Assembly (NCBI RefSeq): GCF_036365525.1
Contig: NW_027140825.1
Span: forward strand, 1,364,001-1,428,000
DNA: 64,000 nt
Direction of reading: 5' to 3'
Source: Heterodontus francisci
Lineage: Eukaryota
Numbering within the stretch: position 1 is the first letter of the stretch; the number at the start of each line of letters is the position of its first letter. The position numbers and the translations under genes were made by a program. The notes below the pieces were generated by a model that saw only the letters and a list, made by a program, of their open reading frames with translations, was not told the DNA's origin and did not search any database. Of the stretch, positions 3,967-36,742 are shown in pieces.

Positions 3967-3981
3967 ACAGCAGGTGGCAGC
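3967..3981 (+). promoter_or_regulatory. Candidate CTCF site ACAGCAGGTGGCAGC
   Basis: Close match to the CCASYAGRKGGCRS consensus. Confidence 0.55.
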
Positions 3982-4539
3982 AGAGATCAACATTTCATCC
4001 AATTCCATCATCCTGAGCTCAAGTGAGAAAGACAGGATGGAGGAAGGACAGGGGGCAGGAAAAAAGAAAGTTTGTTTGGGTGAAAAAGGGGGAAAAAAGA
4101 GATTGAAAGAACGTGACGAGAAAAGAGAGAAGAACTGCAAGAGAAATCCAAGGAAGGAGAAGAGTTTAGGAAAAAGGGGGCGGGAAGGAATGAGAAAGTA
4201 GAGAAAGAAAAAGAGAAGGGAAAGAAAATGGAGAGAAGAAATCAGAACAAGAAAGAAAGACAGAGAGGAAGAGAGATAGAGAGAAAGAAAGATAAACAAT
4301 GAAGGAGAGGAGTAGATTGAAAGGAATGACAAAAGATAGAAAATTGGTCGATACAATAACAGAAAGTTTGATTGGATGAAATAAAAAAATTGATGGAAGA
4401 GAAGAATTAAAGAAAGGATAAAAGAATGATGGGGAGGAAGAAAGATAATTAAAATAAGGAACTAAAGACTGAAAGCATAACTAAATGAATGATATAAAAA
4501 TGCTGAAGAAGGAAATTCAGCTGCAATAGGCATCACAGA

Positions 4540-4910
4540 CTTTGCTGCACTGACCCAGCAGCCACATTTCCTCTGCATGGAGGGGGCAGGTGCACGGGGC
4601 CCAGAGACAGCGTCTCACCCAGTAGGAAATGAGACAAACATGGGCTCAATCTGCCAGCCTCTGAGCGGAGAGCACAGCAACAATAACAGGTGGCACTTTC
4701 CGTTAAACCACAGGGTGAAACTCGGGCGCAATGACCTACTTTACAAACCGTGCAGCGCGCCTGCATGCAGAAAGCTGAGCTGCACCATTTGAAAGTTCAC
4801 ATCCCACGGCCTCCGTTTGATATCTTTCCGTGCAGCTGCACAATGTTATTTTCCAGCTCCAGTCTTGTTTTGAGTTAATATTTTCCGGAGGAAATGACAC
4901 TGTAACCGAA
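4540..4910. promoter_or_regulatory. Candidate TCR beta 3' enhancer (E-beta-like)
   Basis: Unique island between purine tracts with clustered Runx (AACCACA 4706-4712), ETS (TTTCCT, TTTCCG, GGAGGAAAT) and E-box (CAGGTG x2, CAGCTG) motifs, about 3.5 kb 3' of C. Confidence 0.5.
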
Positions 4911-5164
4911 TTTTAAAGTCACAGCTCATTATCGCTCCGGTTCACTCAAGCAGACAATCACTTTAACAAGCCAAATCTTTACCCCCATACAGTATGTAAG
5001 ATTTCAGTGAACGTTTGGCCGACTCTGCTCTGTCTCATTGATATTTTCCAGTGTTACTGCTGAAATTTTGCATTTAGGGTTTTTTTTTTATATGTGGAGA
5101 ATTGGAACGGGGAGTGAGCAAGTACTGGTAAAAAAGGGGAAGGGATGTGATTCGAGACCAGATT

Positions 5165-5830
5165 GTGTGTGTGAGAGAAAGAGCTAGGGAGAGCTGGGGA
5201 GAGAGACAAAGAGAGAGAGAGGGTGAGGGGAAGAGGGGGCAAGGGAGCGAGAGAGAGAGATAAACAAACAGAGGGGGCAAGATATGGAGAGAGAGAAAGA
5301 CAGAGGGAAAGAGAGGGGAAGGGATGGAGAGAGAGAAAGACAGAGGGAAAGAGAAGGGAAGGGATGGAGAGAGACAAATAGACAGACAGGATAGAATATG
5401 GAGTGAAAGACAGGCAGCGAGAGAGAGAGAGAGAGAGGGTTACAGAGAGACAGAAAGGCAGACAATGAAAAATACTGAGGAGTCAGCAACTTGGAAAACG
5501 GTAAGCGAGGTGATAGAGAGAGAGGGGGAGGGGAGAGAGAGAGACAAACATGGTGAGTGATGGGGAATTAAGCAGGCAGCGCACAGAAAGAGGAAGAAAT
5601 GAGATAGAAAGGAAAAGAGGTAGGGGAATGGCTGTATAAGAGATACAGAGAGAAAGAAGGGATAAATGAAAGATACAGGGAGAGAAAAATAGAAAGAGAG
5701 AGGGAGAATGATAGTGGGGAATAGAAAAGGAGAGAAAGATGCAGGGCATAGAGAAAGGCAGGGGACGTATAGAGACAGAGAACTGGTGAGATAGAGAGAC
5801 CAGGAGCTAGAATAGTGGGTAGATAGAGCT
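5165..5830. repeat. GA-rich low-complexity tract
   Basis: Seen directly. Similar tracts at 1-205, 4020-4500, 46540-46860 and 57870-58150. Confidence 0.9.
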
Positions 5831-8329: not shown

Positions 8330-8356
8330 TCAGTCAAACCTTTTGCTGTAAGACGT
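8330..8356 (-). CDS. TRBC: TCR beta constant exon 4 (cytoplasmic tail TSYSKRFD*)
   Basis: T-rich tract and ccag acceptor, phase 0 matching exon 3, ends in TGA. Confidence 0.85.
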   Translation of the reverse strand, partial: TSYSKRFD

Positions 8357-9301
8357 CTGGTATATGATAAAAAAAAGAGGGAGTTATTATCGTCATGGAA
8401 TTATGGACTGATACAGAACAGAAGGAGGCCATTCGTCCCGCGTGCCTATACTGGCATTTTGAAAGAGCTGTCCAATTAGTCCCATTTCACAGTTCTTTCC
8501 CCTATAGCCCTGAGACTATTCCCTCCCCCACTACCTCAACCCCCTCAAACAAGTATTCATCCAATTCCCTCTTGAAAGTTACTACTGAATCAGCTTCCAC
8601 CGACCTTTCAGCCAGTGCATTCTCAACCACAACAACTCGCTGGCTCAAAATATATTTCTCACCTGCCCCTCTGCTCCCTTGGCTAATCACCTTACAGCTG
8701 TGTCCTTGGTTGGGCAATCCTGCTGCCTCTTTGAAGCTGTTACCCCATTCATTGTCCTATCCAAACCATTCATCATTGTGCACACCTCTATTAAATCTCT
8801 CCTTAACCTTCCCTGATCCAAGGAGAACAATCCCAACTTCCGTATTCTCCTCACATCACTGAGGTCCCTCAACCCTGATACCGTTCAAGTAAATCGCCCC
8901 TTCACCCTCTCCAATGACTCGACATCACTGTCCTGACCAGATCATCATGTGCATGAATAATCGAGACGAACCATGCACATGCTCTTTCCTGCTCATGCAT
9001 TCCTAACCTTGCATATAAAGTCTTGTAAAATCACAATAAGTTCAATTATTTTCCAAGGGAAATTCCAGAACATTGACAATTGTGTTCAACTGGATTAAAT
9101 TGGTTGGTTAGTTTTGTGGGCACAGGAATGAATGGAAAGTGAATTGGTGTATTCCATCTGCGTGCAATAGGAATGCAAAACGTGGGCTCGTGAATATCGG
9201 ATAATCACTCGTAATTTCAGTCTGGAATTCAGGAGAAACTTCTTTACCCAGTTTCACCATTACAATACCTATGTTAAGAACTTCAGTAATTTTAATCTTA
9301 C

Positions 9302-9408
9302 CTTAGTTTTCCAAGCAATTGTTGAGATGAAAATTGTATAAAAGATGCTTTTGCAGATGAGGATCAGGTATGTCAATTTTGCCGTTGCCATGCTTTGGAT
9401 TTTCGCCT
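9302..9408 (-). CDS. TRBC: TCR beta constant exon 3 (transmembrane)
   Basis: tacag acceptor, (E)AKIQSMATAKLTYLILICKSIFYTIFISTIAWKTK, gtaag donor. Conserved TM Tyr, Lys and Tyr (CART motif). Confidence 0.95.
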
Positions 9409-10209
9409 CTGTAAAGTAAATGTAACAGAAAATGTTGCAATCTCTGTTCTCTCAAGGCAAGAAATGCTACTGCGTGAAAATGTAATGTGTGTCAGTGAAG
9501 CAGCCCAATGTAAGGGTCGAGCTGCGAAAGCAGAACTGATCTCCCTTTGACGCAAGGAGCCCTGGGGTATTCCTTACTACAAATGGAGTTCAGCAATATG
9601 GCCGATCTGAATTGGGGCCGCTGTAACTTCTGTGTCAGCTATGGCTCACGTATGTATCAGATCTAGCTGATTGGGTAACGCTCTCCTGTCTGAGTCGTAC
9701 GATTGTGGGTTCATGCCCCAGTCCAAAGACATGAACCCCATAATCCAGACTGACTCTCCCAGTGCCAGTAGACAGCGTGTGTGCTGCACTGCAACTTTGG
9801 AGGAACCTTCTTTGAGATGATGTGTTAAACTAATTTAACCTCTGGGAAGTGGAACTGTCCCTCTTATCTCCACGCCAGATTCACACTATCAACTCCCAAG
9901 GAATTGTAAGTTTTAAGACAGGTGTACACAGCTCCCTCCCCTCCCATCCCCAGGCGTCTCCTCTCCCTCATCACAGGGCAGCATATTTCCCTGAGGTCGT
10001 GAACCCAAGAGGACTGTGATGTTATATCATTCGACTAGGCTGATTTCGAAATTCCCACGGCCTTTCCCTCCCAGAGGAGTTTTCTCATAAACTCGTTGTG
10101 CATGATAGTATGTATAACTGTAAAACTACAGCTTGGAAATGTTGAAATGAGTATATACATGAAATGTCTGACACAGTAATAATTCCAGAATTATTGGTGA
10201 ATATTTTTT

Positions 10210-10745
10210 GAGTCATGGAGTCATTACAGCACAGAAAGAGGTCATTCGGCCCATCGAGTCCATGCAGGATCTCTACAGAGCAATCCAATCAGTCCAGCTC
10301 TCCCCTTCCATCTCCATTGCCCTGCAAGTTAATTACCCTCAACAGTCCGTCCAGTTTCCTTATGAAATCATTCATTATCTCCATTTCCACCACCCTCGTA
10401 GACAGTGACTTCCAGGTCATTACCACTCGCTGCATAAAACACTTCTTCCTCACATCTACCCCCCCACTGCATCTTTTTCCCAAAGCCTGAAAACTGTGAC
10501 CGCCCCCCCCAGTCCTTGTGCCAGCAACTCATGGGGACAACTTTTCTTTGTCTACCTATTGTAAACCTGTCATAATCTTGTACAACTCTGTCAAATAGCC
10601 CCTCAATCTCCTTTTCTCCAAGGAGAACAACCCAGGTTCTCCAATGTAACTTTGTAGCTAAAATTCCTCATCTCTGGAACCATTGTGGTAAATCTCCTCT
10701 GCACCCTCTCAAGGACCCTCACCTCCTTTACAAAGTGTGGCGACC
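10210..10745 (-). mobile_element. CR1 LINE 3' fragment
   Basis: WSPHF..LERVQRRFT..QRVVMTW and a CR1-type 3' UTR. Confidence 0.85.
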
Positions 10746-10775
10746 AGATACAGATAGAAGCAGATAGATATTCAC

Positions 10776-10796
10776 CTTTACTTATACCGCACATTT
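10776..10796 (-). CDS. TRBC: TCR beta constant exon 2 (hinge with interchain Cys)
   Basis: Polypyrimidine tract and ccag acceptor, 21 nt (E)MCGISK, phase 1/1, gtgaat donor. Confidence 0.9.
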
Positions 10797-11116
10797 CTGG
10801 GAAAAGAAAGAAAAATCAATAAACATTCAGCATCAGAATATTTTATGAAATCACTGTGTAAATGTAGATTATCACAATTGAGTCCCGCACTGTAGTCTAA
10901 TATATTGAGAGTCATTTTAATTGAGTGTTTAACCATATCTTCCCCTTTACACTACAATATTGTTCTATTTCATGAATTATTTAATTATTTATTGACTTAC
11001 TGATACATCTACTTGCTTATTCGTACTTTCATAAGAGCACAGGTGCGATATAAATGCAACTTTCTGATTTCTTTGAAGCTGAAATAAAATGGTATTGGTC
11101 TCACTAGTGTGCCTAC

Positions 11117-11467
11117 CTGCTTTGACAGCTAATGTTGAACTGCTTGTTGCAGGCACTGATTCGTTAGTGTAGAGATCTACTCTGCACTCAACGTTCTTGG
11201 ACCGAGCCCAATCTAGGGCGTCGAATCTCAGCCGGCTGCTGATGCTGTAAGATGTATTTTCTTTTGATAGGATGGCATTGAGATCAGTGTGAATGTTCGT
11301 GTCATTAGCATCTTTCTCCTTGCCATCGACAAGCCAGTGGATCTTGATGTTGTCGGGGTAGAAGTCGCTGACGAGGCAGACCACAGTGGCTTTTTTCTTT
11401 TCTCTAATCTCTTCGGGAGAGGGCTCAAAGACAGTAACTTTGGCAGGCCTAATCGTATCGTTTTCGC
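11117..11467 (-). CDS. TRBC: TCR beta constant region exon 1 (C1-set Ig domain)
   Basis: cctgcag acceptor, then GENDTIRPAKVTVFEPSPEEIREKKKATVVCLVSDFYPDNIKIHW...YSISSRLRF...VECRV...AVKA, then phase-1 gtaggc donor. Typical C-beta motifs (KATxVCLxxxFYPD, YSxSSRLR). Confidence 0.97.
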
Positions 11468-11560
11468 CTGCAGGAAAAGTAAATGGAGACAATATGGATG
11501 AGTATGAAACCCGTCTTGAGAATTTTAAACCACCAAACAATATCAACCTTTCAATCCTAG

Positions 11561-15685: not shown

Positions 15686-15737
15686 CCAACACTGTTAATT
15701 TGGGATGGTGGCCAAAATGAAAGTTAGTAGTTGCATC
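15686..15737 (-). CDS. TRBJ: TRBJ segment, non-canonical (DATTNFHFGHHPKLTVL)
   Basis: RSS CACAATG-12-CAGAAAACT and gtaag donor. FGHH replaces FGxG. Confidence 0.8.
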
Positions 15738-16374
15738 CACAATGCTACATTCCTATCAGAAAACTAGGATGGCCTAACAGTTCCCGTAGACTGTCAATAC
15801 TGTAGCTTGTTCACTGTATTTATTTAGTATATCAAGTGAGCATGTAGTGAAATTGTTAAGCTGTTTGGACATTGCCATGTACCTCTCACTTTGAATTCTG
15901 ATTTGAAACAGTGTTTCAGCGTAAATTTAAGTCAATTCCTTATGCACTCAATTTAGTTATTTTCTTGAAGGAAGACTAGGTGAGTTTGCCATTTCGTATC
16001 TAATCTTCTACAACCTTGACTGGATCTAGTCTTTGTTTATTACATTCAATCATTTTTGTTGAGTCAGTGTGTTAAAGGTTATGGAACCAAAGACGGTAGC
16101 TGGAGCTAAGATAAAACTCAGCCATGATTTAAGTGAATGGTGGAAGAGGCTCAAGGGATGAATGGTCCTTTGTGGCTTCTTGTGTTTGATTGGAGTCCTT
16201 TTCAAAATCGTTGACTCGGGTTTGCATCTGTTATAAACTCGACAGTGGCCCTTCCTGAGTTCAGCTTTTAAAATAATCACTACTAGTTGAGCCTTGCCTC
16301 TCTGCTTTTACATTGGTGAAGCTTAATGCTTTTACATTGAACACTGGGGGGACAAATCGCTCGGTTTTACATAC

Positions 16375-16430
16375 CCAGAACTGTTAATCTTGTCCCATCG
16401 CCAAAGCGGAGAGGTGTGCTGTTTCCAGAA
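16375..16430 (-). CDS. TRBJ: TRBJ segment (SGNSTPLRFGDGTRLTVL)
   Basis: CACAGTG-12-ATTAAAACT, FGxG motif, gtatg donor. Confidence 0.95.
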
Positions 16431-16986
16431 CACAGTGTTACAAAGCAGTATTAAAACTGCTGGGGACCAATGATTACACGATAATTCATCGAATACTCTG
16501 ACACCTTTGAACAATTATCATTCAACCAATTGCAATGTGTAGATTTGTCTGTCCTTTTCTCCACCATTCCATTTTAAAGCAGAGAAAATATGGTAACATT
16601 TGCTTAGACGTTCTTGGAGCTCTGTGCACAGTTCTGGTCTCCATATCCCTCGGTTAGACCACACTTGGATCACTGTGCACAGTTCTCGTCTTCATACATA
16701 TTTACCTATCAGGAAAGACTGAATAGCCTTTATGATAGATAAGAGAAGGCTTAGAGGTGACCTGAAAGAGGCGTCTAAGATTATGAAAGGGTTGGGGCTT
16801 CCAGAGGGTAGACACAGAGAAGTCTGGTAACGTTGTCTTTGCAAAATTGTGCATCTTGGGATTCAAATTTACTCAAGTTTTCCAGTATGTGGCCAGGTTT
16901 GTGAGTTTTGGGAGAATTACGAAGCAATGAATGAACACTTAGAGTGAATTAAATTTGAATATTGAGATCTATTCTTGTTTACCTAC

Positions 16987-17035
16987 CGAGAACGTAATCC
17001 CAGAGCCAAAGTAAGAGATCGAGGTCCCAGCTGAA
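16987..17035 (-). pseudogene. TRBJ: TRBJ pseudogene (SAGTSISYFGSG then about 7-nt deletion)
   Basis: CACAATG-12-TGTAAAACT. Only 12 nt lie between FGSG and the donor (19 in intact Js), so it is out of frame with C. Confidence 0.8.
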
Positions 17036-17059
17036 CACAATGTCACAGGCCAGTTGTAA

Positions 17060-17620
17060 AACTACCAGGGCCCTCAGTTAGGCCTGAGCTGGAGTCTCGT
17101 GCCCAATTCAGGGCACCACACTTTTGGAAGGATGTCAAGGTCTTGGAGAGCGTGCAGAGAGAGATTTACTGGAATGGTCCTAGAAATGAGGGACTCAGTT
17201 ATGTGGAAAGACTGGAGAAGGTGGGATTGTTCTCCCAGAGAAGGTGAAGGAGAGATTTAATAGTTGATTTCAAAGCCACGAAGGGCTTTGTTAGAGTCAG
17301 TAGGGGGAGACTGATTCCACTGGCCGGAGATTTCACAACCAGAGAACATAGATTTAAGGCAATTGGCAAAAGATCCAGATGTTTATTGAGGGGCCATTTC
17401 TTTACACAACGACTTGTTATGATATGGAATGCATTACCTGAAAATGTGATAGATACTGATTGCATATTGAACTTCAAAAAAGAATTGGAGCATAGTTCAA
17501 AAAGGCGAAAATTGCAGGACTGTATAGAAAGAAAAGGGGTGAGGGAGGCGAATTGGAGAACATTTCCCAACAGCCGACTCTAGTAAGATGGGCCGAGTGG
17601 TATTCTTGTGTCCAACATGC
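17060..17620 (+). mobile_element. CR1 LINE 3' fragment
   Basis: FFTQRLVMIWNALPENV..FKKEL. Confidence 0.8.
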
Positions 17621-18213
17621 ATATTTGTCGAATTATTTCCATCAACTGTTTTTTTTTAGAAGTCTGTCCCATTATCAACAGTGAGCTTTCATTCCAGAAG
17701 ATCACTGCTTCAGGACGTTAATCATAGCAAGCTGAACAAACTCTGTTTAAGAATGGGATTGAATTTTATACGGATGAAGGCAAAGCACAATCTTCTAAAA
17801 CAAAATCGAAGCGGTCATTTTTATTAATTAGTGTGAGGTTAACAATTTTATGCGGCAACAGCTCAGAATTGTTGACTTAATTTTGGCTGCAAGCCCATAA
17901 AGTATGGATTGACAAAAGTATTAGGGTCATGTCTTTCCAGCCATGTCTATCCTGGATTCTACTCCACCCAATAACCCTCCTGAGAAAAGAGCCTGAGGAA
18001 TGTCTCCCAATTCCAAAACAATTCAGCCAATCACAAGAAGGCATTTCCACCATAACATTCTACGTTAGACAACCCAATGCACTTCTCTGTCGGTTTAATG
18101 TCACACAGCATTTTCTATATTTTTGAAAGGATAATAAGATTGTCGATGTGCTGGTTGATAATTCGAAAATTGGACTGTAATGGGAAACTGCAGAATATGA
18201 TGATAGACTATCC

Positions 18214-18722: not shown

Positions 18723-18770
18723 CTGCTTCAAGGACTAGTTAGACAAACAAAGCCTTTAACATTTACATAC

Positions 18771-21513: not shown

Positions 21514-21563
21514 CTGTCACAACTAACTTGGTACCGCTTCCGAAGTAATATTGATAGCCAGAA
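21514..21563 (-). CDS. TRBJ: TRBJ segment (SGYQYYFGSGTKLVVT)
   Basis: CACAGTG-12-AACAAAACC, FGxG, gtgagt donor. Confidence 0.95.
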
Positions 21564-22610
21564 CACAGTGAGAGACCCTTGTAACAAAACCTCACAAGGC
21601 GAGGTGCAGGTCTTGTCTATATCACACTTGGACCCTGTCCTCGAAAGCGTTTGTTGATCACATCTCCTTAATTTATATATCTCCTAATTTACATTTGTGG
21701 CTCACGAGCAAGGTCATAGAATAAGAAATATACATCACTGAAGGGGAGACCATTCGGCCCATAGGACCTCTGCTGGCTTTATGAAAGGTTTTACCATCGT
21801 CCTGTATATTTCCCTTCGAGTATCTATCAATTTCCATTTTGAAAGTTTCTCCTGAACCAACTTCCACCACCAGTTCAGATATGCCTTCCCGATCACAGTA
21901 ACTACCTCTGTGGGAGAATGTCTCTTCATCCCGCCACTGGTCCTTTATGTCAATTGCCTCAAAACCTGTGTCCTCTGGTTACCGACCCATCTACCAATGG
22001 AGACTGTTTCTGATTATTAATTCTATCCAAAACCTTCACTAATTTGAACACCTCTATTCAATCTCCATTTAACCTTTTCTGTTCTCCAGTCTCTCCAACT
22101 ATCTGAGGTCCCTCATCTCTGGTACAATTCTGGTGAATCATTTCTGCTCCCAATCTAAGGCCTCGACAACCGTCATAAAGTGTGGTACCCAGGACTGAAC
22201 ACAATACTCCAGCTGGGACCTTACCAGTGATTTGTAAATGTTAATCCTCACTTCCTCACTCAACACCTCGTGAATTCTTAACCAATGATGGTGCGTTCCA
22301 GCATCATCAACTGGTCACTTCAAACATCTTGACCCTTTTTTTGACCAAGCTCTCTCTCTATCTCACTCCTCGCATTAAACCAATAGAGTAACATTCGGGA
22401 CAGGGGTAGGCCATTCAGAGTCTGATTTCCCAGACAGCTATCACTTGTTGATTTCCACACACACAATCGGTCATTGTGAAGAAACGGATGCAGCTGAATA
22501 GGGAATATTATTAGCGTTATCTTCATATATTAATCTTGTAAATTTCAATCAGACTATACCATATCAGACGTTGCGGAATGATTCTCACTGACGCCACGTT
22601 AATCAGTTAC

Positions 22611-22662
22611 CTAAAACCACGAGGTTTGTGCCATCGCCAAATGTATAGTCATTGTTCCCTGA
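22611..22662 (-). CDS. TRBJ: TRBJ segment (SGNNDYTFGDGTNLVVL)
   Basis: CACAATG-12-AACAAAGCT, FGxG, gtaac donor. Confidence 0.93.
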
Positions 22663-23094
22663 CACAATGTTACACAGTTGTAACAAAGCTAGGGAATCTT
22701 TAACTCTCTACACGGCGGTTAATTAAGCACAGTTGCATCGTTTTGTATTGGGTTGCATTTATTACCCCGCCCTTTCCCTCTTTACCTCTTTTTGTTATTT
22801 CTTTTGTTTTGTCTCGACCTCTCCCATCTTTGTCTCTCTAATTTTCCGTCCCCTTTTCCCTGCATTTTGCTCCCAATCTGTCTCTCTGTAGATAAGGTTT
22901 GCCTCCCTAACCTTCCTCCATTTCCACCTCGCCATTGCCCTATGTTTAGTTGTTTTCACTGTTGCTTCGTTACTCTTTGTTTTTTTCTAAAGTTTATGGT
23001 CTCTCCCCTTTCTTCAAACTGATGGGGACAAACTGGCCGACAGTTTTAATAATTACTGAGACCACTGATATGTTTCAACAAATATCTCACTCAC

Positions 23095-23152
23095 CCAGGA
23101 CTGTTAACTAAGTGCCGTCTCCAAAATATGATAGCTGGGTATTTCCTGCTCC
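23095..23152 (-). pseudogene. TRBJ: TRBJ pseudogene (GAGNTQLSYFGDGT*LTVL)
   Basis: In-frame TAG after FGDGT. RSS CACATCA-12-ACGAAAACA. Confidence 0.9.
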
Positions 23153-23702
23153 CACATCATCATGTGACAACACGAAAACATTCCTCAATAGCGCCCTGCC
23201 AGTTTTCAGTGTCCATCTCATTAATATTTGATATTGCCCTTTGACAAACATGAGCTGACCATACAACAAAGTACACGCATAAAATAACCGGGTGGGGAGG
23301 TGGGGGAGAGGGGGCTTGACCATTAAAGCCAGCAACATTCACAGTACCGTCTATCCATCCATCTGTGAATATGTTAGATGTCCACAGATACAGTGCTTAT
23401 AATACTGGAAGATTTTACATGGAGTTGTTCATAATTATTAATTAACTTCTACACTCAAGTTGGGGACCAGATAGCTCAGTTGGCGAACGTGCCAGTTTGA
23501 ACAATGCTTACAGAACGGGTTCATTTCTCACCGTGTCTGGGGAAGGCAAGGGGAAGCCTCCTCATAGACACTGCTCCACATTCATGCTCCTCTCTCCTGC
23601 TGGAGAAAAGGAGCAGAGAGCCAGTACATCAGATGACCACCAGCCTGCACAGACAAGATGAACCCAGCATCCCTGGCTTCATTGAATGAAGGTCTAACTC
23701 AC

Positions 23703-23759
23703 CCAATACTGTTAGAGCCGAACCTTCTCCAAAATGTAAAGGCTGGTCGCTCCCGCCTG
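23703..23759 (-). CDS. TRBJ: TRBJ segment (GGSDQPLHFGEGSALTVL)
   Basis: CACTATG-12-ACCAAAACA, FGxG, gtgagt donor. Confidence 0.92.
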
Positions 23760-23914
23760 CACTATGCTGAACAACATTACCAAAACACACCTTTGGATAG
23801 ACCGATACACCGACAGAAAAGTAGCTACGTAGATCGATAAACATAAAGATGGATACACAGACCGATACATTGTGGATGATGGAACAATAGATGTTTATAT
23901 AGATGCTAACGTAC

Positions 23915-23964
23915 CTAAAACAGTTAACTTGGTACCAGCTCCGAAGTAGTAAATATCAGAAGAG
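23915..23964 (-). CDS. TRBJ: TRBJ segment (SSDIYYFGAGTKLTVL)
   Basis: CACAAAG-12-ATCAAAACC, FGxG, gtacg donor. Confidence 0.93.
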
Positions 23965-25499
23965 CACAAAGCTAAATCCCTGCATCAAAACCTCTCACCT
24001 CTCTCTGATTCTTGTCCTGAAGGAGCCTTTCACAACTAGAAAGAACCTACAGGAGTATTGGCACAAAGGAACATAGAAATACTGTAGCTGGAGTAGGCCA
24101 TTCAGCCCGTCGAGCTTGTTCTGACATTCAGTGAGGTCATGAATCATCTGTATTGTAACCCCATTAGCCTGTTTGTGTTCCAGACCCTTTTCCTAACAAG
24201 GCTCTATCATTCTCAGATTGGGAAGTGACAATTGACCCTGTGGCCTCAGCAGTTTCATAGCGGAGAGAGGCCCAGATTTCCACCACCGTTTGTTCAGTTA
24301 TGTCCTTTCTGGCATCACCCCTGAACGGCCAAGCTTTAATGTTAAGCTAATGCTCCCCTCCACCCTCACCCTTGCTCTGGGCTCTGACACCCGCGTAAAT
24401 TGCAGCTCTATCTGCCCTATCGAATCCTCTCATTATCTTAAACACATCAGTTGGATCAATCCTTAATCTCCAATGCTCAACATCTCCAAGCAACCTGCCC
24501 CCATAATTTAATCCCGTCACCATTCTGGTAAATGAGGAAAGATCATTCGCAATCTGCCCTGGACTTTCAGCTCACGTTCCCCAGGCCGTTCAATGTGCAT
24601 TCAACACCCAGTGTCCATTCACAAACAAAAAAATCCCCTTTTATACTTCTCATCCATTCAAACGCTTCAGGATAATGGGGAATACATCAAATAACATCGA
24701 AGATTCAGCAGCGAACCAGACCATTCAGCCCACTACGTCCTAGCCGATTAAATGCTCCACATGATCCTTCTCACACCCTCTTCATCTCACCCCATCCTTT
24801 TAAAAGGTCATTTTATTCCTTTCTCCCCCATATGTTTATCCAGCTTCCCTCTTAAATACATCTCTGCTATTCGCCTCAGCCCACTCCCTGTGGTAGTGAG
24901 TTCCACATTCTCGCCACTCTCTGGTTGAAAAGGCTTCTCCTGAATTCCATATTTGATTTATTAGTGACTGTCTTATATTGATGGTCCCCTGGTTCTGGTC
25001 TCCTCAACAAGTGGAATCATCTTGCCTCTGTCATAATCTTAAAGACCTCGATCAGGTTATCCCCTCTGCCTTCTCTTTTCTGGAGAAAACAGCACCAGCC
25101 TCTTCATTCTTGACCTGTGGTTATATCCTCTCAATTTTGGGAGCACACTTGTAAATATGTTTTGTTTTGCTCTATCCAGAGCCTCTGCTTTTTAATCATA
25201 TGCAGTCCATAACGGCATACTGAAGAATTGAATCTGACAGTTTTCGTTCTGTGTCTGTGTCCTCTTGTTCTGTTCTCATTTGGAACTACATTGCTGTTTG
25301 TACTGTTTATTTTAGAGACCCTCCCTTATGTCCCCACTCAAACTCCTTTCCAAATGAATTCAGCAGTTGTAGGTCTCCCTTTTTAAGCCCAAGAGTCGAA
25401 ATTAATTCACCGAATTCCTAAATATTCACTCCCACGACCACCCCACGTGAATTCCCGAATTGAATCAACTTTTCCAGTGTTAGGAAGGCATTCACTCAC

Positions 25500-25549
25500 C
25501 TAAAACCACCAGTTTGGTCCCATCTCCGAAATATGCTTCTCTCGCATTA
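25500..25549 (-). CDS. TRBJ: TRBJ segment (NAREAYFGDGTKLVVL)
   Basis: CACAATG-12-CGCAAAATC, FGxG, gtgagt donor. Confidence 0.94.
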
Positions 25550-26913
25550 CACAATGGTATGGGGCTGTCGCAAAATCCCCCTCCAGTCTAGATTGTTAAG
25601 TCTATTCCATTGAAGTTCTGACTGTTTCAATGGCCCGTAAAGGGCGTAGGAACATGTGGACAGGAGGTGGCCGTTCAGCCCTTCGAGACTGTTCCACCAT
25701 GCAGTTAGATCAGGGTTGTTCTGAATCTTAACTCTATCATCCCACCTTGGTTCTGTAACTGTCAATACTTCTGTTTAACAAAAATCTAACAATCTTGAAT
25801 TTGAAATTATCAATCGACGCCCAGCCTCAACAGTATATTATTTTGTTGTGGGGGGTGCGGGGAGAGTTCCTGATATCACCCCTGAACGGCTCGAATTTAA
25901 ATCGTTCTGGACTCCCCCCAACCTGAAGAAGCAGTTTCTCTCTATCTATCCAACACCTCAAGCTCCTCGATTATATCAGCCCTTTAATGATCTCGATTGT
26001 AGATCTTTTGTCAATGATTTTAAATATCTGACCTTTGTTTATTGACCCATCCACCAGTAGAAATAATTTCCCCTTCAAGTAATTGTCCAGTCCCCCTTTT
26101 GAAAGTTACTATTGAGTCTGTTTGCACCACCCTTTCAGGCAGCGCATTCCAGATAACAACACACCGCATAATTGTTTTATTCTTCATATCACCCCTGTTT
26201 ATTTTGTCAATTACCTTAACTCTGTGCCCTTTGTTTACCAACGCTTCGAGCATTGGAAATTGTTTCTGAGCATGTACTGTGTCCAAAGCCTTCATTGCTT
26301 TGGACACCTCTGTCAAATCCCCCCTAAACTTTCTCTGCTCTAGTCTCTAGACGCAACTGAAGACCCTCATCGCTGGAACCAGTCGAATAAATCATTCGTG
26401 CAACCACTCTAAGGCCTTGACATCCATCCTAACATGTGACACCCACAATTCTCCAGCTGGGACCTAACCAGCGATTCATCGAGGTTCAGCTTAACTCCCT
26501 TGCTCAACTCCTCGTCAATCCTTCTTTAACGAAGGTACTTTCCAGCTTCTTCAACTCTTTATTCTAAATTTCTTGATTGTCACGTATTTGTCCCTGTACC
26601 TCACTCCTATCATCAACTCGCATTACGCCGATTTAGCTACATTAGGGACTGGATTAGGCCATTCAACCTCTGATATCCAAGGTACTTATCACATGTCGAT
26701 TTCCACATGCACAATACGTCTCTAGTTTGTTTCAGGAAATATTCCATATGGGGCTCGGAAGTAATGCATGAAGCCGGAACACAAATACAAGGTGTATGTT
26801 TATATATAAGGTCCTCATATCCACAACTAGGTTTGAATAATTTTAAATTTCAACTAGACATCCCTCTGATTCCACTTTCCTTTAAAGAGCTAATTCGATT
26901 CTATCTCACTTAC

Positions 26914-26965
26914 CTAAAACCATGAGTTTTGAATTACCCCCAAAAGTATAACCATCGTTGCCTGA
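26914..26965 (-). pseudogene. TRBJ: TRBJ, probably non-rearranging (SGNDGYTFGGNSKLMVL)
   Basis: Heptamer CGCAATG breaks the invariant CAC, and FGGN replaces FGxG. Donor is intact. Confidence 0.8.
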
Positions 26966-27705
26966 CGCAATGTTACACTTTTGTATCAGAACTCGCGTTT
27001 CTTTAACTCGATACACAATAGTTAATGAACATAGTTGGAACATTTTGCCTTGTGTTATATTCATTATTCCACCCTATTGCTCTTTATCTTATATTCTGTT
27101 ACAATTGATCTCCTTGTCTCTGTCTCTTTTTCACTGTTTTAAATCTAATTTCCCATCTCCCTCCAGTTTTGTCTGATGTTTGCTCTCCATCTGGAGTGAA
27201 GAAGAATGGGGGATGATGGTCTGGGAAATTCTAAGATTCAGAGGGCGCTTGACAGGGTAAATGCTGAGAGGATGTTCCCCTGTAGAATTAAAGGGCGCAG
27301 TTTCAGAATGAGGGGTCGCTCATTTAGGACGGAGTGGAGGAGGAATTTCTTCGATCAGGGAGTCGTGAATCTTTGGAATTCCCTACTCCACAGCGCTGTG
27401 GAGGCTGAGTCCGTGAATGCATTCAAACTGAGATAGAGAGCAGAGCCAAGGATTATGGAGAACAGGTAGGAAAGAGGGATCGAGGCCAACATCAGATCAG
27501 CCATGATCTCTGGTTGTAAATTCCTCTCTCACCAGCCCTCCTCCAATCTCCTACATTTAGCTATTTAAATTCTTGCTTCTTCAATGCAATGCTTACTCTT
27601 TTGCCTGTTTTCACATTCTCTCTCCTTTCTTTAAATTGAAGAGACTAAACTAGTCGACGTTTGCAATGCTAGTAAGAGACATATTTTGACGAACATCTCA
27701 CTTAC

Positions 27706-27764
27706 CCAGGACTGTTAATTTAGAGCCATCTCCAAAATACACAAGGCTGAATACTCCCTGCTCC
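27706..27764 (-). CDS. TRBJ: TRBJ segment (GVFSLVYFGDGSKLTVL)
   Basis: CACATCA-12-ACAAAAACA, FGxG, gtaagt donor. Confidence 0.9.
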
Positions 27765-28108
27765 CACATCATCACCTCACATCACAAAAACATTCCCCAA
27801 CTCTCTTCTGGAAGAAAAGAAATTCACTGCCCCATTCCTTAATATTTGATAGTGGCCTCTGGTTAACGCAAGCTTACTGTAAGTTAATGTAAACTGGTGG
27901 ACTAACCAGGCAGTTTGCAGTTATAACTCTCAGAATTCCCAAGACTGTCTGCCCCGTCTAAATGTGGACCTGTTAGTCAGTTATCCACCGTGGCAGTCCT
28001 GACAATAGGAGATTTTCTCTAAGTCCCTCCCAATTATTCATTCAATCCTTCTTGCAAGATGTTTACAGGTGACCCTTGCTTCATTGAAAACAAAGAAACT
28101 GAACTCAC

Positions 28109-28165
28109 CCAAAATCGTCAACTTGGACCCGTCCCCAAAATGTAGCAGGTTGGTATACCCGCCCG
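28109..28165 (-). CDS. TRBJ: TRBJ segment (GGYTNLLHFGDGSKLTIL)
   Basis: CACTGCA-12-ACCAAAATA, FGxG, gtgagt donor. Confidence 0.88.
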
Positions 28166-28376
28166 CACTGCACTAAGCAACAATACCAAAATACAACGAT
28201 GGGTAGACAGATGTATGGACAGACAAATAGATAAGTAGATGGACAAACAGACAGACAGATGGATCCACAGACCAACAAATAGATAGGTACATTGATAGAT
28301 AAAGAAATAGAAAGACTTACAGATGAAAAGAGATGTTTACATATATAAATATCTACATGTGCAAACATAATCTTAC

Positions 28377-28426
28377 CTAAAACAGTGAGTTTAGTCCCAG
28401 CTCCGAAATAATAAATGTCACCAGAG
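28377..28426 (-). CDS. TRBJ: TRBJ segment (SGDIYYFGAGTKLTVL)
   Basis: CACAATG-12-ATTAAAACA, FGxG, gtaag donor. Confidence 0.94.
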
Positions 28427-29935
28427 CACAATGATAAACTCATGTATTAAAACATCACCTGTCTTTGAGTCCTTTTCCGAAGGAGCCCCTCATAATAAGG
28501 GAGAACCGACAAGTATAAGGAAATTTTGTCCAAAGGAACATAGCAACTGGGGAACAGGAGTTGACCATTCAGCCCTTCGTGCTTATTCCGACATTTAATT
28601 AGATTATAAATCAATTGTACCTTAACGCCTTCGACCTGCCTTCTTGGTTCCATAACCTTTAGCATCTTTGCTGATCAAAAAATCATCAACCACACATTTG
28701 AAATTTTCGACTGACTCCCTCAGCTTTCTGTGGGAGAGATTTCTGGATTCCACAGGGCATTTTGTAAACAGGTCCTTCTTGACGTCACTCCTGAATGGTC
28801 AAGCTATCAGTTTAAGGTTTTGCTCTCTTGTTCTGGACCCGTCACACCAGAGGAAATATCAGATCCTATCATTATCTTAAACACATCAATTGGATCACTC
28901 CTGAATCTCCAATTCTCAATTTACTGCAACCCTACTTTAAACAACACATCGTCATAAATTAAATTATTTTGATTCCGGTATTATCCTGGTGAATGAGGAA
29001 AGGTCATGGGGCCCTTGACACCTCATTGTCCACTGGATATGGATAGCTCACCAGTTCGATTAGTAACTTGAAAATAGTGTGTCTCAAAACAGTTTCATCC
29101 ATTGCCGCACGAGGCCAAGAGGGAATATATAGAATTACATAGAATTTACAACACACAAACAGGCCATTCAGCCCATCTGCTCCATACCAGTGTTTACACT
29201 CCACTTGAGACTCCCCTCATCCCCTTCATTTAATCCAATTTTTTTTATCCAATCTACTTTTTTAAACCCACTCCTTGTGGTAGTGAGTTCCACATTCGCA
29301 CCACTGTCTGGGTAAAGAAATTTCTCCTGAATTCCCTTTTGAATTTATTACTGAGTGTCTGACATTTATGCTCTCCCCGTTCTGGTCTCCCCACAAGTGG
29401 AAAAAACTTCGGTGTGTCTACCCTATCGAAACCCCTTTCAAAATCGTACAGAACTCTACCAGGTCACCCCTCAAACTTTACTGCTCTCGAGAACGGAGTC
29501 CCAGTCTGTCCGACCTTCTCCAATAGTTCCAACGTCCCAGTTTGGGCAGCACAGCTGTTAATCTGTTTTGTTTTACCTTATCCAGAGCCTCTACATCATT
29601 TATTTTATAATATGCAGACCAGAACTGCATACTGAACGATGCAATCTGACATTTTTCGTTCTATGTCTGTGTCCTCTTGTTTTGCTCTCACAAGCGCAAT
29701 CATTCTATTTGTATCTACATTACTGTTTGTTCTGTTTATTTTCGCGACCCTCCCTTATGTATCTACTCAAAACCCTTCCCTGCAGTGAAACGAATTCGGC
29801 AGTTGTAGGTCTCCCCTTGTAAGCTGAAGAATTGAAATTAATTCACCAAATTTCTATATTTTCACCCCCTCGACCACCTCACGTGAATTCCCAAATTGAA
29901 TCAACTTTTCCAGTGTTAGGAATGCATTCACTCAC

Positions 29936-29985
29936 CTAAAACCACCAGTTTGGTCCCATCTCCGAAATATGCTTCGTAATTGGAG
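29936..29985 (-). CDS. TRBJ: TRBJ segment (SNYEAYFGDGTKLVVL)
   Basis: CACACTG-12-CACAAAATC, FGxG, gtgagt donor. Confidence 0.94.
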
Positions 29986-30599
29986 CACACTGGTATGGGG
30001 CTGTCACAAAATCCCCTTCAATCCCTCTCGACTGTTAAGTCTGTTCCATTGAAGTTCCTATTATGTCAATGACCGTAAAGGTCGGTGGAACATGGGGACA
30101 GAAGGTGACCGTTCAGCCCTTTGATCAGTTCGATCAAGGTTGATCTGAATCTTAACTCCATCAATCCGCCTTGGTTCTGTAACCCTCAATACTTTTGTTT
30201 TACACAGCTCTATCAATCTTGGATTTGTATTTATCAATTGACCCTCAGTCTCAACTGATTGTTTTTTATGGGGTCGGGGTGGAATCCATCATTTCCACTA
30301 ACCTTTGCATGAAGAAGTGCTTCCTGATATCATCCCTGAATGGCAATAATTTAAACTGTTCTGGACTCCCCGCAACCTGAGGAAGCAGTTTCTCTCTCTA
30401 TCTATCCAACACCTCAAACCCCTCCATGATATCAGCCCTTAAAATTCTATATTCGAGGGACTGTCAGCTTCGTCTGAGTAACCAGTCCTCATGAGTTAAC
30501 CCTTTAATGTATCTAATATCTGAACATTACTCCTGGTGCTTTTTTAACTGAACATAGATTCTGATCGATTGGAGGAACAGAAATACATAGTCGCCTTAC

Positions 30600-30647
30600 C
30601 CAACACTGTCAACTTGGTCCCATCGCCAAAGTAAGCTATCTCTGCTG
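30600..30647 (-). CDS. TRBJ: TRBJ segment (AEIAYFGDGTKLTVL)
   Basis: CACGATG-12-TCATGAACA (weak nonamer), FGxG, gtaagg donor. Confidence 0.9.
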
Positions 30648-30889
30648 CACGATGCTCTAAACTCAGTCATGAACAGACCCGGGAGATGTTCCCCTTGTAA
30701 CTGAACGAGACAGGACGGGGTGGTTTACAGACGAGGGTCATATTGGACTGGTCTTTGCAAACCAGAAAGAAGGGCCAGTGTCATCAGCCTGACTTTTTAA
30801 ACCGCCCGCGGAGGGTTGTGGCAGAACAAGCTTGGAATGCAAACAGCTGGACATGAAGGGAGTGGGAAAAAAACGTCCCTTTTTCTTAC

Positions 30890-30940
30890 CTAACACCGTC
30901 AGTTTGGTGCCGGTCCCGAAGTTGAGTGGTGCGTTGTTAG
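30890..30940 (-). CDS. TRBJ: TRBJ segment, D-proximal (NNAPLNFGTGTKLTVL)
   Basis: CACGTCA-12-ACATCAACC, FGxG, gtaag donor. Confidence 0.92.
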
Positions 30941-31465
30941 CACGTCAGCAGATCTCGTTACATCAACCCGGTCGGAAACTGATTGCTAAAACTGACCTGC
31001 TCAGCATTTCGGAAGCACTGGTCAAGATTATCAGGACGTACAAAGCAGCTTACAGCCAATGAAGCAGTTTGTTTATGAAGTGGTCACCACAGGGAGACAC
31101 AGCAACTGATATTGTACCAAGAAAGTCCCATCAAACAATAGTGAGATTAATGAGCAGATCATTGTTTGTGATGTTGGTTGAGGGATCAATATTGGTCCCA
31201 GGACACCAGGGTGGGGTTTAAAGGTTAAAGAGTTACCAGTTTCCACACAAATGACACACAGTTATTCTCTTTTCCAGAGGAATATTCTAACTTATAAGGC
31301 TGGACCATTCTGAGACATCTTTAAGATGAAAAGGGCCCAGTTCCCGCCATAATCCTGGGCCATGTTGACTCCTTTACTCTGTTGTCACTGCTCTTCTGCT
31401 GATCCTCCACCAGGTGTGTAGAGCGAGGTTTTTGTACGGAGGTTGCATTGGATTTTATCACCGTG

Positions 31466-31478
31466 TCCCTGTTGTCCC
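31466..31478 (-). CDS. TRBD: TRBD segment GGGACAACAGGGA
   Basis: 5' 12-RSS (31479-31506, CACAGTG-12-ACAAAAAAG) and 3' 23-RSS (31427-31465, CACGGTG-23-ACAAAAACC). The GGGACA start is typical of D-beta. Confidence 0.97.
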
Positions 31479-31624
31479 CACAGTGATAGACACTCATACA
31501 AAAAAGAGGAACGCGAAATTTACAAGTCCCCGCCGCTTAAACGGCTCCCGAGGCTTTCACCTGGTGACGGCAGTTGAGATTGAGCTGCTGAAATTTAGTT
31601 AGACCTTTGTAGCACAATTAAAGG

Positions 31625-33124
31625 GCATTCAGCCCCTCTCAAATCTGTTTCACATGAACAGGAGGAGGACATTCAACCCCTCTCCAGTCTGTTACACAGG
31701 AACAGGAGGAGGACATTCAACCCCTCTCCAGTCTGTTACACAGGAACAGGAGGAGGACATTCAGCCCCTCTCCAGTGTGTTACACAGTAACAGAAGGAGG
31801 ACATTCAGCCCCTCTCGAGCCTGCTACAAAGGAACAGGAGGGGGACATTCAGCCCCAATGCAGTCTGTTACACATGAACAGGAGGAGGACATTCAGCACC
31901 TCTCCAGTCTGCCACACAGGAACAGGAGGAGGACATTCAGCCCCTCTCGAGCCAGTTACACAGGAACAGGAGGAGGACATTCAGCCCCTCTCCAGTCTGT
32001 TACACAGGAACAGGAGGAGGACATTCAACCCCTCTCCAGTCTGTTACACAGGAACAGGAGGAGGACATTCAGCCCCTCTCCAGTGTGTTACACAGGAACA
32101 GAAGGAGGACATTCAGCCCCTCTCGAGCCTGTTACACAGGAACAGGAGGAGGACATTCAGCCCCTCTCGAGCCAGTTACACAGGAACAGGAGGAGGACAT
32201 TCAGCCCCTCTCCAGTCTGTTTCACATGAACAGGAGGAGGACATTCAGCCCCTCTCCAGTCTGTTACACAGGAACAGGAGGAGGACATTCAACCCCTCTC
32301 CAGTCTGTTACACAGGAACAGGAGGAGGACATTCAGCCCCTCTCCAGTGTGTTACACAGTAACAGAAGGAGGACATTCAGCCCCTCTCGAGCCTGCTACA
32401 AAGGAACAGGAGGGGGACATTCAGCCCCAATGCAGTCTGTTACACATGAACAGGAGGAGGACATTCAGCACCTCTCCAGTCTGCCACACAGGAACAGGAG
32501 GAGGACATTCAGCCCCTCTCGAGCCAGTTACACAGGAACAGGAGGAGGACATTCAGCCCCTCTCCAGTCTGTTACACAGGAACAGGAGGAGGACATTCAA
32601 CCCCTCTCCAGTCTGTTACACAGGAACAGGAGGAGGACATTCAGCCCCTCTCCAGTGTGTTACACAGGAACAGAAGGAGGACATTCAGCCCCTCTCGAGC
32701 CTGTTACACAGGAACAGGAGGAGGACATTCAGCCCCTCTCGAGCCTGTTACACAGGAACAGAAGGTGGATATTCAGCCCTTCTCCAGCCTGCTACACAGG
32801 AACAGGAGGAGGACATTCAGCCCCTCTCCAGTCTGCCACACAGGAACAGGAGGAGGACATTCAACCCCACTCGAGCCTGTTACACAGGAACAGGAGGAGG
32901 ACATTCAGCCCCTCTCCAGTCTGTTACACAGGAACAGGAGGAGGACATTCAGCCCCTCTCCAGTCTGTTACACAGGAACAGGAGGAGGACATTCAGCCCC
33001 TCTCCATTGTGTTACACAGGAAAAGAAGGAGGACATTCAGCCCCTCTCGAGCCTGTTACACAGGAACAGGAGGAGGACATTCAGCCCCTCTTGAATCTGT
33101 TACACCGGAACAGGAGGAGGCCAT
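31625..33124. repeat. 44-bp minisatellite (ACACAGGAACAGGAGGAGGACATTCAGCCCCTCTCCAGTCTGTT), ends in N gap
   Basis: About 34 visible units with period 44 and a 572-bp higher-order duplication. Confidence 0.97.
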
Positions 33125-34499
33125 NNNNNNNNNNNNNNNNNNNNNNNNNNNNNNNNNNNNNNNNNNNNNNNNNNNNNNNNNNNNNNNNNNNNNNNNNNNN
33201 NNNNNNNNNNNNNNNNNNNNNNNNNNNNNNNNNNNNNNNNNNNNNNNNNNNNNNNNNNNNNNNNNNNNNNNNNNNNNNNNNNNNNNNNNNNNCTTTCTGT
33301 CCCTCTCAATTCACCCCTTATCCCAATCCCTGCCTCCGTTCCTTACCCTTTTCTTTACCTGCATTGTCCCTCCACAACCTGCAGGATCTCAGGAAGCACC
33401 AGCTACGGGAACACACTTAATGTATACAGTAAATCGTGTACACTGCAATCTCTTCACCTATCACTCAGAGAGTCCCAGGTCTGCCAAACCAGTGATGTGC
33501 AAGTTCCCAGGTGTTCTGTTGCGGTGCTGTTATCATTTCAGCTGATCTGTCTGCACACCAACAGCCATCGCCCATGCACCTGGTCCTCAACTCTAACATT
33601 GAGGGTTTTACTCTTTTGTTCGGTTCTGATGCTGCTTGCTCTTCAGATGAAGGTAACGCGAGGTTCTGGGTTGAAGAGGTTCAAAAAATTTCTAACGATA
33701 AAGGCGGACGTTGAATGAAGGATTGGGATATGGACACAAAACATTTTCAAAGAAAGGCGATTATGGAGTCATCAAAGTAAGTACATTTCCCTTTGTCCTT
33801 TTGCAAACATGGCACAAAGTAGGAATCCATTGCTGCTTCTAAAAGTTCCCTGGACATGATAGAGCGATGAGAAGTCATGTTAAACTTGTATAGAATCTTC
33901 CTTAGACCACAGTTAGAGCACTTTTCCCAGTTCTGGTATTCATTTTAAAGAGATATAGAGATACAGGAGAAGGGGCAAAAAAGGAATGACAAGGATGATA
34001 TCAGAACTGAGAGGTTATAATGATCAGGAAGGGCTGTAAAGAGAAGGCTGAGGGGGTGATCTGATGGATGGATTTAAGATTATGAAAGAGTTTTTGATAG
34101 GGTAGACGTGCAAAAGATGTTTTCACTTGTGGGGGAGTCAGGAACTCCGAACCATCAATAGAAAGATAGTCACTAATAAATAAAATCGGGAATTCAGGAG
34201 AAACTTCTTTACCCAGAGAGTGGGAGGATGTAGGGAGTGGGATAAGGCGAATAGCGGAGATGTATTCAAGAGGGAATCTGGATAAACAAATGGGGGTGGG
34301 GCAGATTTGGAAGGATCTACTGATGGGGTGAGATGAAGACGGGAGCGAGGAAGCTCGTGTGGAGGATGAACGGCAGCATGAATGTGTTGGGCCGAATGGC
34401 CTGTTTCTTTGCGATTTACCTCAGGACACAGTCCAAGTGATGTAGTGCGTCTCACCTGAGAAGGCAGACCAGCCGCTGATTTAAAATCTCAGGTGCAAA

Positions 34500-35313
34500 T
34501 TCAGCACTCCCTCTGTACTGACCCTCTGAAAGTGCAGCAATCCCACAGTACTGATCCTTTGAGAGTACAGCACTCCCTCAGTACTGACCCTCGGACAGTG
34601 CAGCAATTCCTCAGTACTGACACTCTGACAGTACAGCACTCCCTCACTACTGACCCTCTGACAGTGCGGCACTCCCTCAGTACTGACCCTCTGACAGTGC
34701 AGCACTCCCTCAGTACGGACACTCTGACAGTGCAGCACTCCCTCAGTACTGACCCTCTTAGAGTGCAGCACTCCCTCAGTACTGACACTCTGACAGAGCA
34801 GCACTCCCTCAGTACTGACCCTCTGACAGTGCAGTGCACCCTCAGTACTGACCCTCTGACAGTGCAGCACTCCCTCAGTGCTGACCATCTGACGGTGCGG
34901 CACTCCCTCAGTACTGACACTCTGACAGTGCAGCACTCCCTCAGTACAGACACTCTGACAGTGCAGTGCTCCCTCAGTATTGACCCTCTGACAGTGCAGC
35001 ACTCCCTCAGTACTAACCCTCTGACAGTGCAGCACTCCCTCAGTACTGACCCTCGGACAGTGCAGCACTCGCTCAGTACTGACACTCTGACTGTGCAGCA
35101 CTCCCTCAGTACTGACCCTCTGACAGTGCAGCACTCCCTCAGTGCTGACCATCTGATGGTGCGGCACTCCCTCAGTACTGACACTCTGACAGTGCAGCAC
35201 TCACTCAGTACTGACCCTCCAACAGTGCAGCACTCCCTCAGTACTGACCCTCTGACAGTGCAGCACTCCCTCAGTACTGACCCTCCAACAGTGCAGCACT
35301 CCCTCAGTACTGA
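34500..35313. repeat. 33-bp minisatellite (CAGCACTCCCTCAGTACTGACCCTCTGACAGTG)
   Basis: About 24 units. The 11-aa periodic ORFs are artefacts. Confidence 0.97.
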
Positions 35314-36637
35314 ATTGACGAAGTTGGCTGCATTGGCGATCGATGGGCGGTAAGTGGCGCTATTGCTCCACTAATCCTGATCACTTCTTCATTTCTCGGC
35401 CGTTCCTTCCTCTGACAGCGACCTCAGCTCTGCCATTCCCTCCCAAACCCCCTCCACATCTCTCTCCTCCAAACCTGCCCGGCTTTGGCCCACACCTCCT
35501 AACAATTTCAGCTGTAACCCTGTGTCAAATAGTTGGCAGATTTACGCTGTTCGGGCCGTTTATCTCGGGACGGTGAAGTCGCTATTTAAATGCAAACTGC
35601 AGCTGTTTAATTACACGCTCGTGCTGACCTGTGAACAGGAGGCTTATGACTTGGAACATGTCTTCCAGAAACGGATTCTGTCGGCAGTTTTGATTTACGT
35701 TTCTTCCACGGGGGGACACGAATTAAACTCGTCACAGAAAATTTGATTCGAATTTGTCACGATCGGGATTTCGCGTCCTGTTGCTCTAGTTTTCAGCACT
35801 TGTATGCTGTCGCTTGATGTAACGTCCTCTTAAAATCTATCACCATCCTCCTCACGGTTCACAAAACTGCAAAGTTTGCAATTGTGCCCTGCACACACAA
35901 GTCTAGGTTATTAATATCGATCAAGACAAGCAGTGGTCCCTGGAGAACCCCACTATATACCTTCTTTCAGACTGAACACCAACTGTTTACCACTACTCTG
36001 TTCCATGTTGCTTTGTATCCATGTTGCTAATGCCCCTTTTATTCCATGGGCTTTAACTTTGCTGACAAGCCTGTTATGTAGTACTTTTTGAAACGCTTTT
36101 TTTGAAGTTCATGTACACCACATCAGCCGCATTACCCTCATTAACCCTCTCTGTTACCTCATCAAGATATGTGTATCCGACTCTTGGTTTCCTGATTAGT
36201 CCACAGAGTGCTGGTTGTTTCAAAAGGCCGTGCAGTATTCATCATCTCCACAGATGGGAGAACCTCAAAGCATCTTGTATGACTGACCACTTCCTCTGAT
36301 GTGTCTTTAAATATCAGAAGTGGTTTAGTGGGGAGCACCTCGGCACTGAGTCAGAGGTTTGTGGGTTTAAGTCCCCGGACCGAGATTTAAGCATAAAAAC
36401 GAGGCTGACACCCCCAGTGCAGGACAGAGGAAGTGCTGCACCGTGTGGAGGTGTAGCACCGAGGTACTCTCTTTATTTTGGCTGAGATGTTAAAACGAGG
36501 TCCCGACTGCAGATGGGAAGGATCTCATAGCCACTATTTCGGAGAATAACAGGGGCATTCTCGAGGGTTATCTGGGGCAATAGACATCCCTGAACCAACT
36601 TTACTAAAACAGATTATCTGGTCATTCTCGGTTTCCA

Positions 36638-36742
36638 CCAGGAGATGGCGCAGTACTCCGCAGATCTCGTGGCTGCAAATGGAATTCGAGCAGATGTCAG
36701 ACAATGAATTTCCATTCAGCGAGTGATCGCGCCCTCTGGCGG
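36638..36742. promoter_or_regulatory. Pair of oppositely oriented candidate CTCF sites between V and D
   Basis: CCAGGAGATGGCGC (+, 36638-36651) and CCGCCAGAGGGCGC (-, 36729-36742). Confidence 0.65.

Follow-up and report, generated by a model that had tools for sequence, protein, structure and literature searches.

CTCF/cohesin control of V(D)J joining has been worked out in mouse. At mouse Tcrb, 5′PC and two CTCF-binding elements (CBEs), CBE1 (3 kb upstream of Dβ1) and CBE3 (in the Eβ-Trbv31 interval), all face the 18 CBEs of the V array, and occupancy is mostly thymocyte-restricted, being weak at the site near Dβ1, according to passages of PMC10772921 and PMC5859386. Because these three elements share the V-facing direction, they form no convergent bracket among themselves, as far as those passages describe them. 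CBE2, located between CBE1 and Dβ1, is oriented the other way; in the available part of bioRxiv 10.1101/2024.10.13.618029 it is mentioned once and is not deleted. The same part reports that, upon deletion of CBE1 or CBE3, enhancer activity reaches neighbouring genes and V use shifts. The barrier upstream of mouse Dβ1 is described in a section of PMC4291525 as a pair of weak sites plus a repetitive tract. V capture at Tcrb includes diffusion (excerpt of PMC10824074), so that a loop-extrusion centre is an incomplete account even in mouse. In skate, the borders of topologically associating domains (TADs) carry oriented CTCF motifs (excerpt of PMC10115646; cited also in 10.64898/2026.10.19.759930), which means that the mechanism is available in the cartilaginous-fish lineage. 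We found no study of CTCF at a shark antigen-receptor locus among the titles and abstract starts searched, subscription journals and bioRxiv supplements being outside this scope; evidence relevant to binding may exist in published shark CTCF data sets or in supplements. Here we describe three strong CTCF motifs in a 64,000 nt stretch of DNA (hereafter, the window) from the horn shark, Heterodontus francisci. The window carries a T-cell receptor β (TCRβ) V-D-J-C cluster on the minus strand, and we ask how the motifs compare with the mouse elements.

Both strands of the window were scanned with a version of the JASPAR MA0139.1 matrix (column sums 908-913). Four sites had p < 1e-6, where 0.13 were expected, and the next-best score was 13.0. 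Three of the four stand at the edges of the D-J-C region: a minus-strand motif at 36727-36745 (rank 1, score 21.2, p 4.3e-8; core 36729-36742, 0 mismatches), a plus-strand motif at 3964-3982 (rank 2, score 18.7, p 2.8e-7; core 3967-3980, 1 mismatch), and another plus-strand motif at 36635-36653 (score 17.1, p 8.2e-7; consensus match at 36638), for which a second register at 36632 scores 12.0. All three hold the core motif of a CBE, and a consensus search allowing at most 1 mismatch returned exactly 3 matches, at 3967, 36638 and 36729. In 300 shuffled windows, half of them dinucleotide and half trinucleotide block shuffles, the second-best site never reached 18.7 and the third-best never reached 17.5. 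When four sites were placed at random, the bracket made by 3964 and 36727 arose in 2.7% of the simulations, two sites came within 100 bp of each other in 1.9%, and the layout of three sites was seen in 0.3-0.4%, these figures being post hoc, as the simulation windows were picked after the data had been seen.

The 3964 and 36727 motifs are convergent and span 32,782 bp. Enclosed between them are a candidate enhancer, the C gene, 20 J-like segments and the D segment, whereas all six V exons lie outside. This arrangement had been proposed in an earlier reading of the letters alone (the original prediction), which placed a plus-strand motif at 3967 and a near-consensus minus-strand motif at 36729, facing each other around enhancer, C, Js and D and excluding the Vs, and we found it as proposed. 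The same reading assumed one anchor between V and D. The inward-facing motif at 36727 is indeed present, but the oppositely facing motif at 36635 had been overlooked: 36635 faces V and 36727 faces D-J-C, the two being 92 bp apart. This opposite pair sits midway between D and the first V, with 36635 at 5,157 bp from D, and has no self-match within the window. A fragment of a very high-copy repeat stops at 36626, 9 bp before the 36635 motif; since other copies of this repeat run past that point in a different sequence, the motif does not belong to the repeat. The CpG observed/expected ratio (o/e) in the 150 bp around the pair (36620-36770) is 1.02, compared to 0.40 for the whole window.

At the other edge, the 3964 motif faces D and V, stands 536 bp away from where the motifs of the candidate enhancer begin, and gave no self-match across the motif in the window. 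A CTGCA word at 3949-3953 ends 9 bp before its 19-mer, and the spacing used to assign it is the one we take to apply to the CTCF upstream motif. The word is a partial match to that upstream motif, as given in an excerpt of PMC10290554. The upstream motif was also looked for at 36635 and 36727, and was not found at either.

The candidate Eβ-like enhancer (4500-4900, no strand assigned) contains 2 RUNX, 7 ETS and 4 E-box sites, and the segment 4426-4725 is the top-scoring 300-bp RUNX/ETS/E-box cluster of the window, as scored with motif consensi. Weaker CTCF motifs had also been proposed in this region, at about 4576-4589 and 4683-4696, and here the original prediction did not stand. The corresponding 19-mers, 4573-4591 and 4680-4698, score 5.9 (p 2.2e-4) and 1.7 (p 1e-3), i.e. 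at chance level, with 44 sites of the window scoring higher. They give no strong match to the CBE core motif and are absent from the 13 consensus matches with at most 2 mismatches, a number that shows no excess over the 12.35 expected. We reject CTCF identity for both, and they are better read as E-boxes, of which each holds one.

Judged by position and orientation in the sequence, 3964 is CBE3-like, 36635 is CBE1-like and 36727 is CBE2-like, the order within the pair being swapped. By analogy, we favour with middling confidence the reading in which the three strong motifs act as borders of a recombination centre, like mouse CBE1, CBE2 and CBE3. The motifs, their orientation, the gene anatomy and the multi-copy state are read directly from the data, and from these we infer CTCF binding, cohesin stalling and enhancer insulation. 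CTCF would bind at 3964, 36635 and 36727. Cohesin loaded at the active enhancer and at D-J chromatin would be halted by the 3964 and 36727 sites, and the 33-kb domain so formed would hold enhancer activity and early D-to-J joining off the V segments and off the sequence beyond C. For cohesin coming from the V side, the stop would be 36635 (and 3964), by which V segments would be brought to the edge of the centre. The 36635/36727 pair is thus predicted to be a two-way barrier rather than a single loop anchor. As for the mouse parallel drawn in the original prediction, sites do exist upstream of Dβ1 and near Eβ/Trbv31, but they are not convergent, since all face the V array in the sources cited. 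Its convergent-loop model agrees with the geometry seen here, and oriented-site loop extrusion has been reported in skate, but its one inward anchor is at odds with the pair. We conclude that its observation was largely right but incomplete, and that its interpretation is partly supported.

The original prediction spoke of conservation in sharks; the evidence on this comes from one species, the horn shark, whose locus is multi-copy. On four scaffolds of different length, five genome-derived Cβ models were found, two of them sharing one scaffold, and three of these models carry their own proximal V version, at 100%, 97% and 83% to the window. Contigs of one sample hold the exact version at a depth of 10-13 beside a variant at 33-36; again in one sample's contigs, a near-identical version at a depth of about 50 stands beside a version diverged by about 10% at 16-21. 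Part of this multi-copy signal may come from alleles or redundant scaffolds. All 8 public runs carry a single organism label (best share 0.48), with no other species among them, and 4 of the 8 were aligned to 35320-37720, a stretch that includes the pair, the 3964 site lying outside it. In 36603-36865, there was no substitution among the 40 rows shown of 284, and one 1-bp insertion was seen between the two motifs of the pair; summed depth is higher over the motifs, which may mask variants, and we do not take this result as a sign of conservation. A metagenome scan returned two unrelated matches of 27-31%, which were left unused.

In the public protein models P0003, P0005 and P0006, V is spliced to C by way of mis-called exons, and one such exon (36588-36767) crosses both CTCF motifs of the pair. 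These proteins are annotation artefacts of the unrearranged locus. In P0006, which comes from a paralogue, the mis-called exon across the 36635 motif has 22/22 identical residues. The diverged paralogue keeps the 36635 motif at the level visible in translation, and the motif is best described as retained, not as demonstrably constrained. P0005 also spans both motifs, but it matches the window in every exon and was rejected as an independent comparison.

Multicluster TCR genes were reportedly found in the horn shark in a report of 1994, for which we found no confirming passage. TCR genes of cartilaginous fish are stated to be in translocon form in an excerpt of PMC6795676, and part of PMC2435157 describes shark IgH rearrangement as confined to miniloci, which makes per-cluster borders interesting. 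Each horn-shark TCRβ unit looks like a small translocon, with at least 6 V, 1 D, about 20 J and 1 C. It is tempting to extend the favoured reading, in a speculative form that we hold to be rather improbable: the CTCF grammar of the Tcrb borders would come from the jawed-vertebrate ancestor and would have been copied with each horn-shark V-D-J-C cluster, the 110-bp crossed pair and the downstream site making a self-contained unit that keeps rearrangement within clusters.

A number of observations weigh against the border reading. Three consensus matches were reached in 7/100 shuffles, a borderline count, and the motif scores depend on the version of the matrix used. The fourth site below 1e-6, on the minus strand at 63624-63642 (score 17.5), lies in an interspersed repeat, presumably CR1-like, as 63552-63651 matches 37727-37827 at 73%. 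Strong motif scores can therefore arise in repeats, and shuffling underestimates how often motifs occur in real vertebrate DNA. Four other 300-bp patches devoid of motifs hold more CpG than the patch of the pair. The 3964 core holds an E-box, with surroundings that contain no CpG, and the cluster score of the candidate enhancer was matched by 3/100 and 10/100 shuffles, which is again borderline. The 22/22 identity over the 36635 motif in P0006 is not above the background of that model (87/94 residues, counted by eye over three displayed mis-called exons, one gapped 53% match being left out). There is no chromatin immunoprecipitation (ChIP) or transposase-accessible chromatin (ATAC) library among the 8 public runs, which are genomic, capture and restriction-site-associated DNA (RAD) libraries, 4 of them without a library record. 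The last points come from known systems. The D-facing 36727 lies on the V side of 36635, whereas CBE2 lies between CBE1 and Dβ. The six shark Vs have no strong motifs among them, compared to 18 CBEs in the mouse array: above 41536, 7 minus and 4 plus motifs were found at p < 1e-4, of which only the repeat-borne 63624 is below 1e-6, so that the matrix scan gave no unique-sequence motif at p < 1e-6 among the V segments, and the window offers the V-facing sites no clear partner. Finally, the pair faces inward on itself, whereas the Igh element IGCR1 is divergent in the available part of PMC6439775.

Among the alternatives, the one that fares best is that the motifs are bound as ordinary constitutive CTCF sites, marking general chromatin borders (e.g. 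of each duplicated unit) and playing no role in V(D)J choice. The strength of motifs lying in CpG-retaining sequence speaks for it, as do the compactness of the locus, where the first V is 10 kb from D, and the lack of V-array motifs to pair with. We consider it unlikely nonetheless, because the placement of the motifs at both edges of the D-J-C-enhancer region mirrors that of mouse sites for which roles are shown in the passages cited.

Less credible is a single convergent loop, 3964-36727, that would by itself define the recombination centre and be inherited from an ancestor shared with mouse, 36635 being incidental. The two motifs rank 2 and 1 and are convergent, and mouse CBE2 and CBE3, as placed in the sources cited, would make the same bracket; however, 36635 is nearly as strong (17.1) and is kept in a paralogue, and the mouse sites of shown function all face V in those sources. 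It is just as doubtful that at least one motif is an unbound chance match, 3964 being an E-box site of the enhancer flank and the bracket being picked after the fact: the borderline consensus count, the 17.5 reached by a repeat-borne motif, the chance level of the weak sites and the post hoc placement tests all lean that way, but the second- and third-best matrix scores exceed those of all 300 shuffles, 3964 has a partial upstream motif, and two strong motifs fall within 100 bp of each other in few random placements.

We now turn to the gene anatomy within which the border reading is set. V segments with 23-spacer recombination signal sequences (23-RSS), a D with 12- and 23-RSS, Js with 12-RSS and a Cβ gene are all present, as expected for a TCRβ locus. 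The six V exons, with 23-RSS, lie on the minus strand within 41537-62360 (heptamers at 41536, 44595, 46154, 55399, 57410 and 62066), and the V array runs on past the window edge. Between V46154 and V55399, there is a long LINE-like insertion at about 50390-53400, presumably of CR1 type. PDB matches of the 'CAWS' V segments gave no tie to the TRBV30/Trbv31 clade. The single Dβ (31427-31506, minus strand; the D itself at 31466-31478) has its 12-RSS towards V and its 23-RSS towards J. Two long tandem arrays, 31622-33124 and 34502-35313 (units of about 44 bp and 33 bp), occupy part of the interval from D to the CTCF pair and recall the repetitive tract next to the barrier at mouse Dβ1. The most CpG-rich 300 bp of the window, 35551-35850 (20 CpG, o/e 1.30), is 0.8 kb from the pair and has no gene or strong motif assigned.

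The 20 J-like segments lie on the minus strand within 15686-30940, next to 12-spacer RSS-like sites. FGxG is found in 18 of the 20, one of these carrying an in-frame stop (near 23125), and is altered in the other two (near 26944 and 15716). Their RSSs are often weak, with nonamers at 3-5 mismatches, and two J sub-blocks have been duplicated (24880-25987 compared with 29267-30443, 75%). The Cβ gene (8330-11468, minus strand) has four exons, 11117-11468, 10776-10796, about 9302-9408 and 8330-8356. A search with its exon 1 gave 14 proteins, of which 6, all from Heterodontus francisci, are 99-100% identical and the remaining 8, from other sharks, are 53-61% identical; the PDB matches include TCRβ chains.

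Beyond the 3964 site, an inverted copy of V-array sequence is found on the plus strand at 1038-2768 (76-83% identity to 60021-58390), its source being the sequence upstream of V57410. This position is where mouse carries the inverted Trbv31. An inverted V exon or a 23-RSS beyond C was sought in 1038-2768, and none was found in the readable sequence; the copy also lacks the ATG of the candidate leader present in the V-array copy (59102-59057). A cluster of E-box, GATA, RUNX and ETS sites is present in both copies.

The three sites are defined to 19 bp each, which makes the question directly testable. Should they prove to be bound and conserved, control of recombination through chromatin architecture would date back as far as the RAG system, and the crossed pair, 92 bp apart, would offer a natural way to ask if opposite sites must stand in a given order. 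If they are unbound, an ordinary motif coincidence would be at hand.

Compared to skate TADs, the likeness is that an orientation code operates in cartilaginous fish; the domains reported in the available part of PMC10115646 have a median of 800 kb, were mapped in fin tissue and include no antigen-receptor locus there. With Igk Cer/Sis, the locus shares CTCF sites placed between V and J, and Sis is made of two opposite sites; Igk differs in having no D, and Cer consists of two V-facing sites, for four sites in total (excerpt of PMC5859386). With Igh, the shark locus shares an opposite pair between V and D, in which the D-facing site is convergent with a site past the enhancer, as for IGCR1 and the 3′CBEs. 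The 3′ end of Igh differs in carrying at least 9 CBEs (excerpt of PMC6439775), compared to one strong 3′ motif in the shark. The resemblance extends further with mouse Tcrb. In both loci an opposite motif pair lies a few kb upstream of Dβ, including a V-facing site (CBE1, shark 36635); a V-facing motif lies just past the enhancer (CBE3, shark 3964); and inverted V-type sequence is found beyond the site at the CBE3 position. Neither a second V-facing site like 5′PC nor a trypsinogen spacer was seen in the shark window, and the shark differs further by a pair merely 92 bp apart, a first V at 10 kb from D and a multi-copy locus. We conclude that the shark set would work like the mouse Tcrb border set, yet falls outside it in a strict sense by its pair order and its V-array sites, and that the shark sites are a plausible new case of an architecture already known, and one that can be tested.

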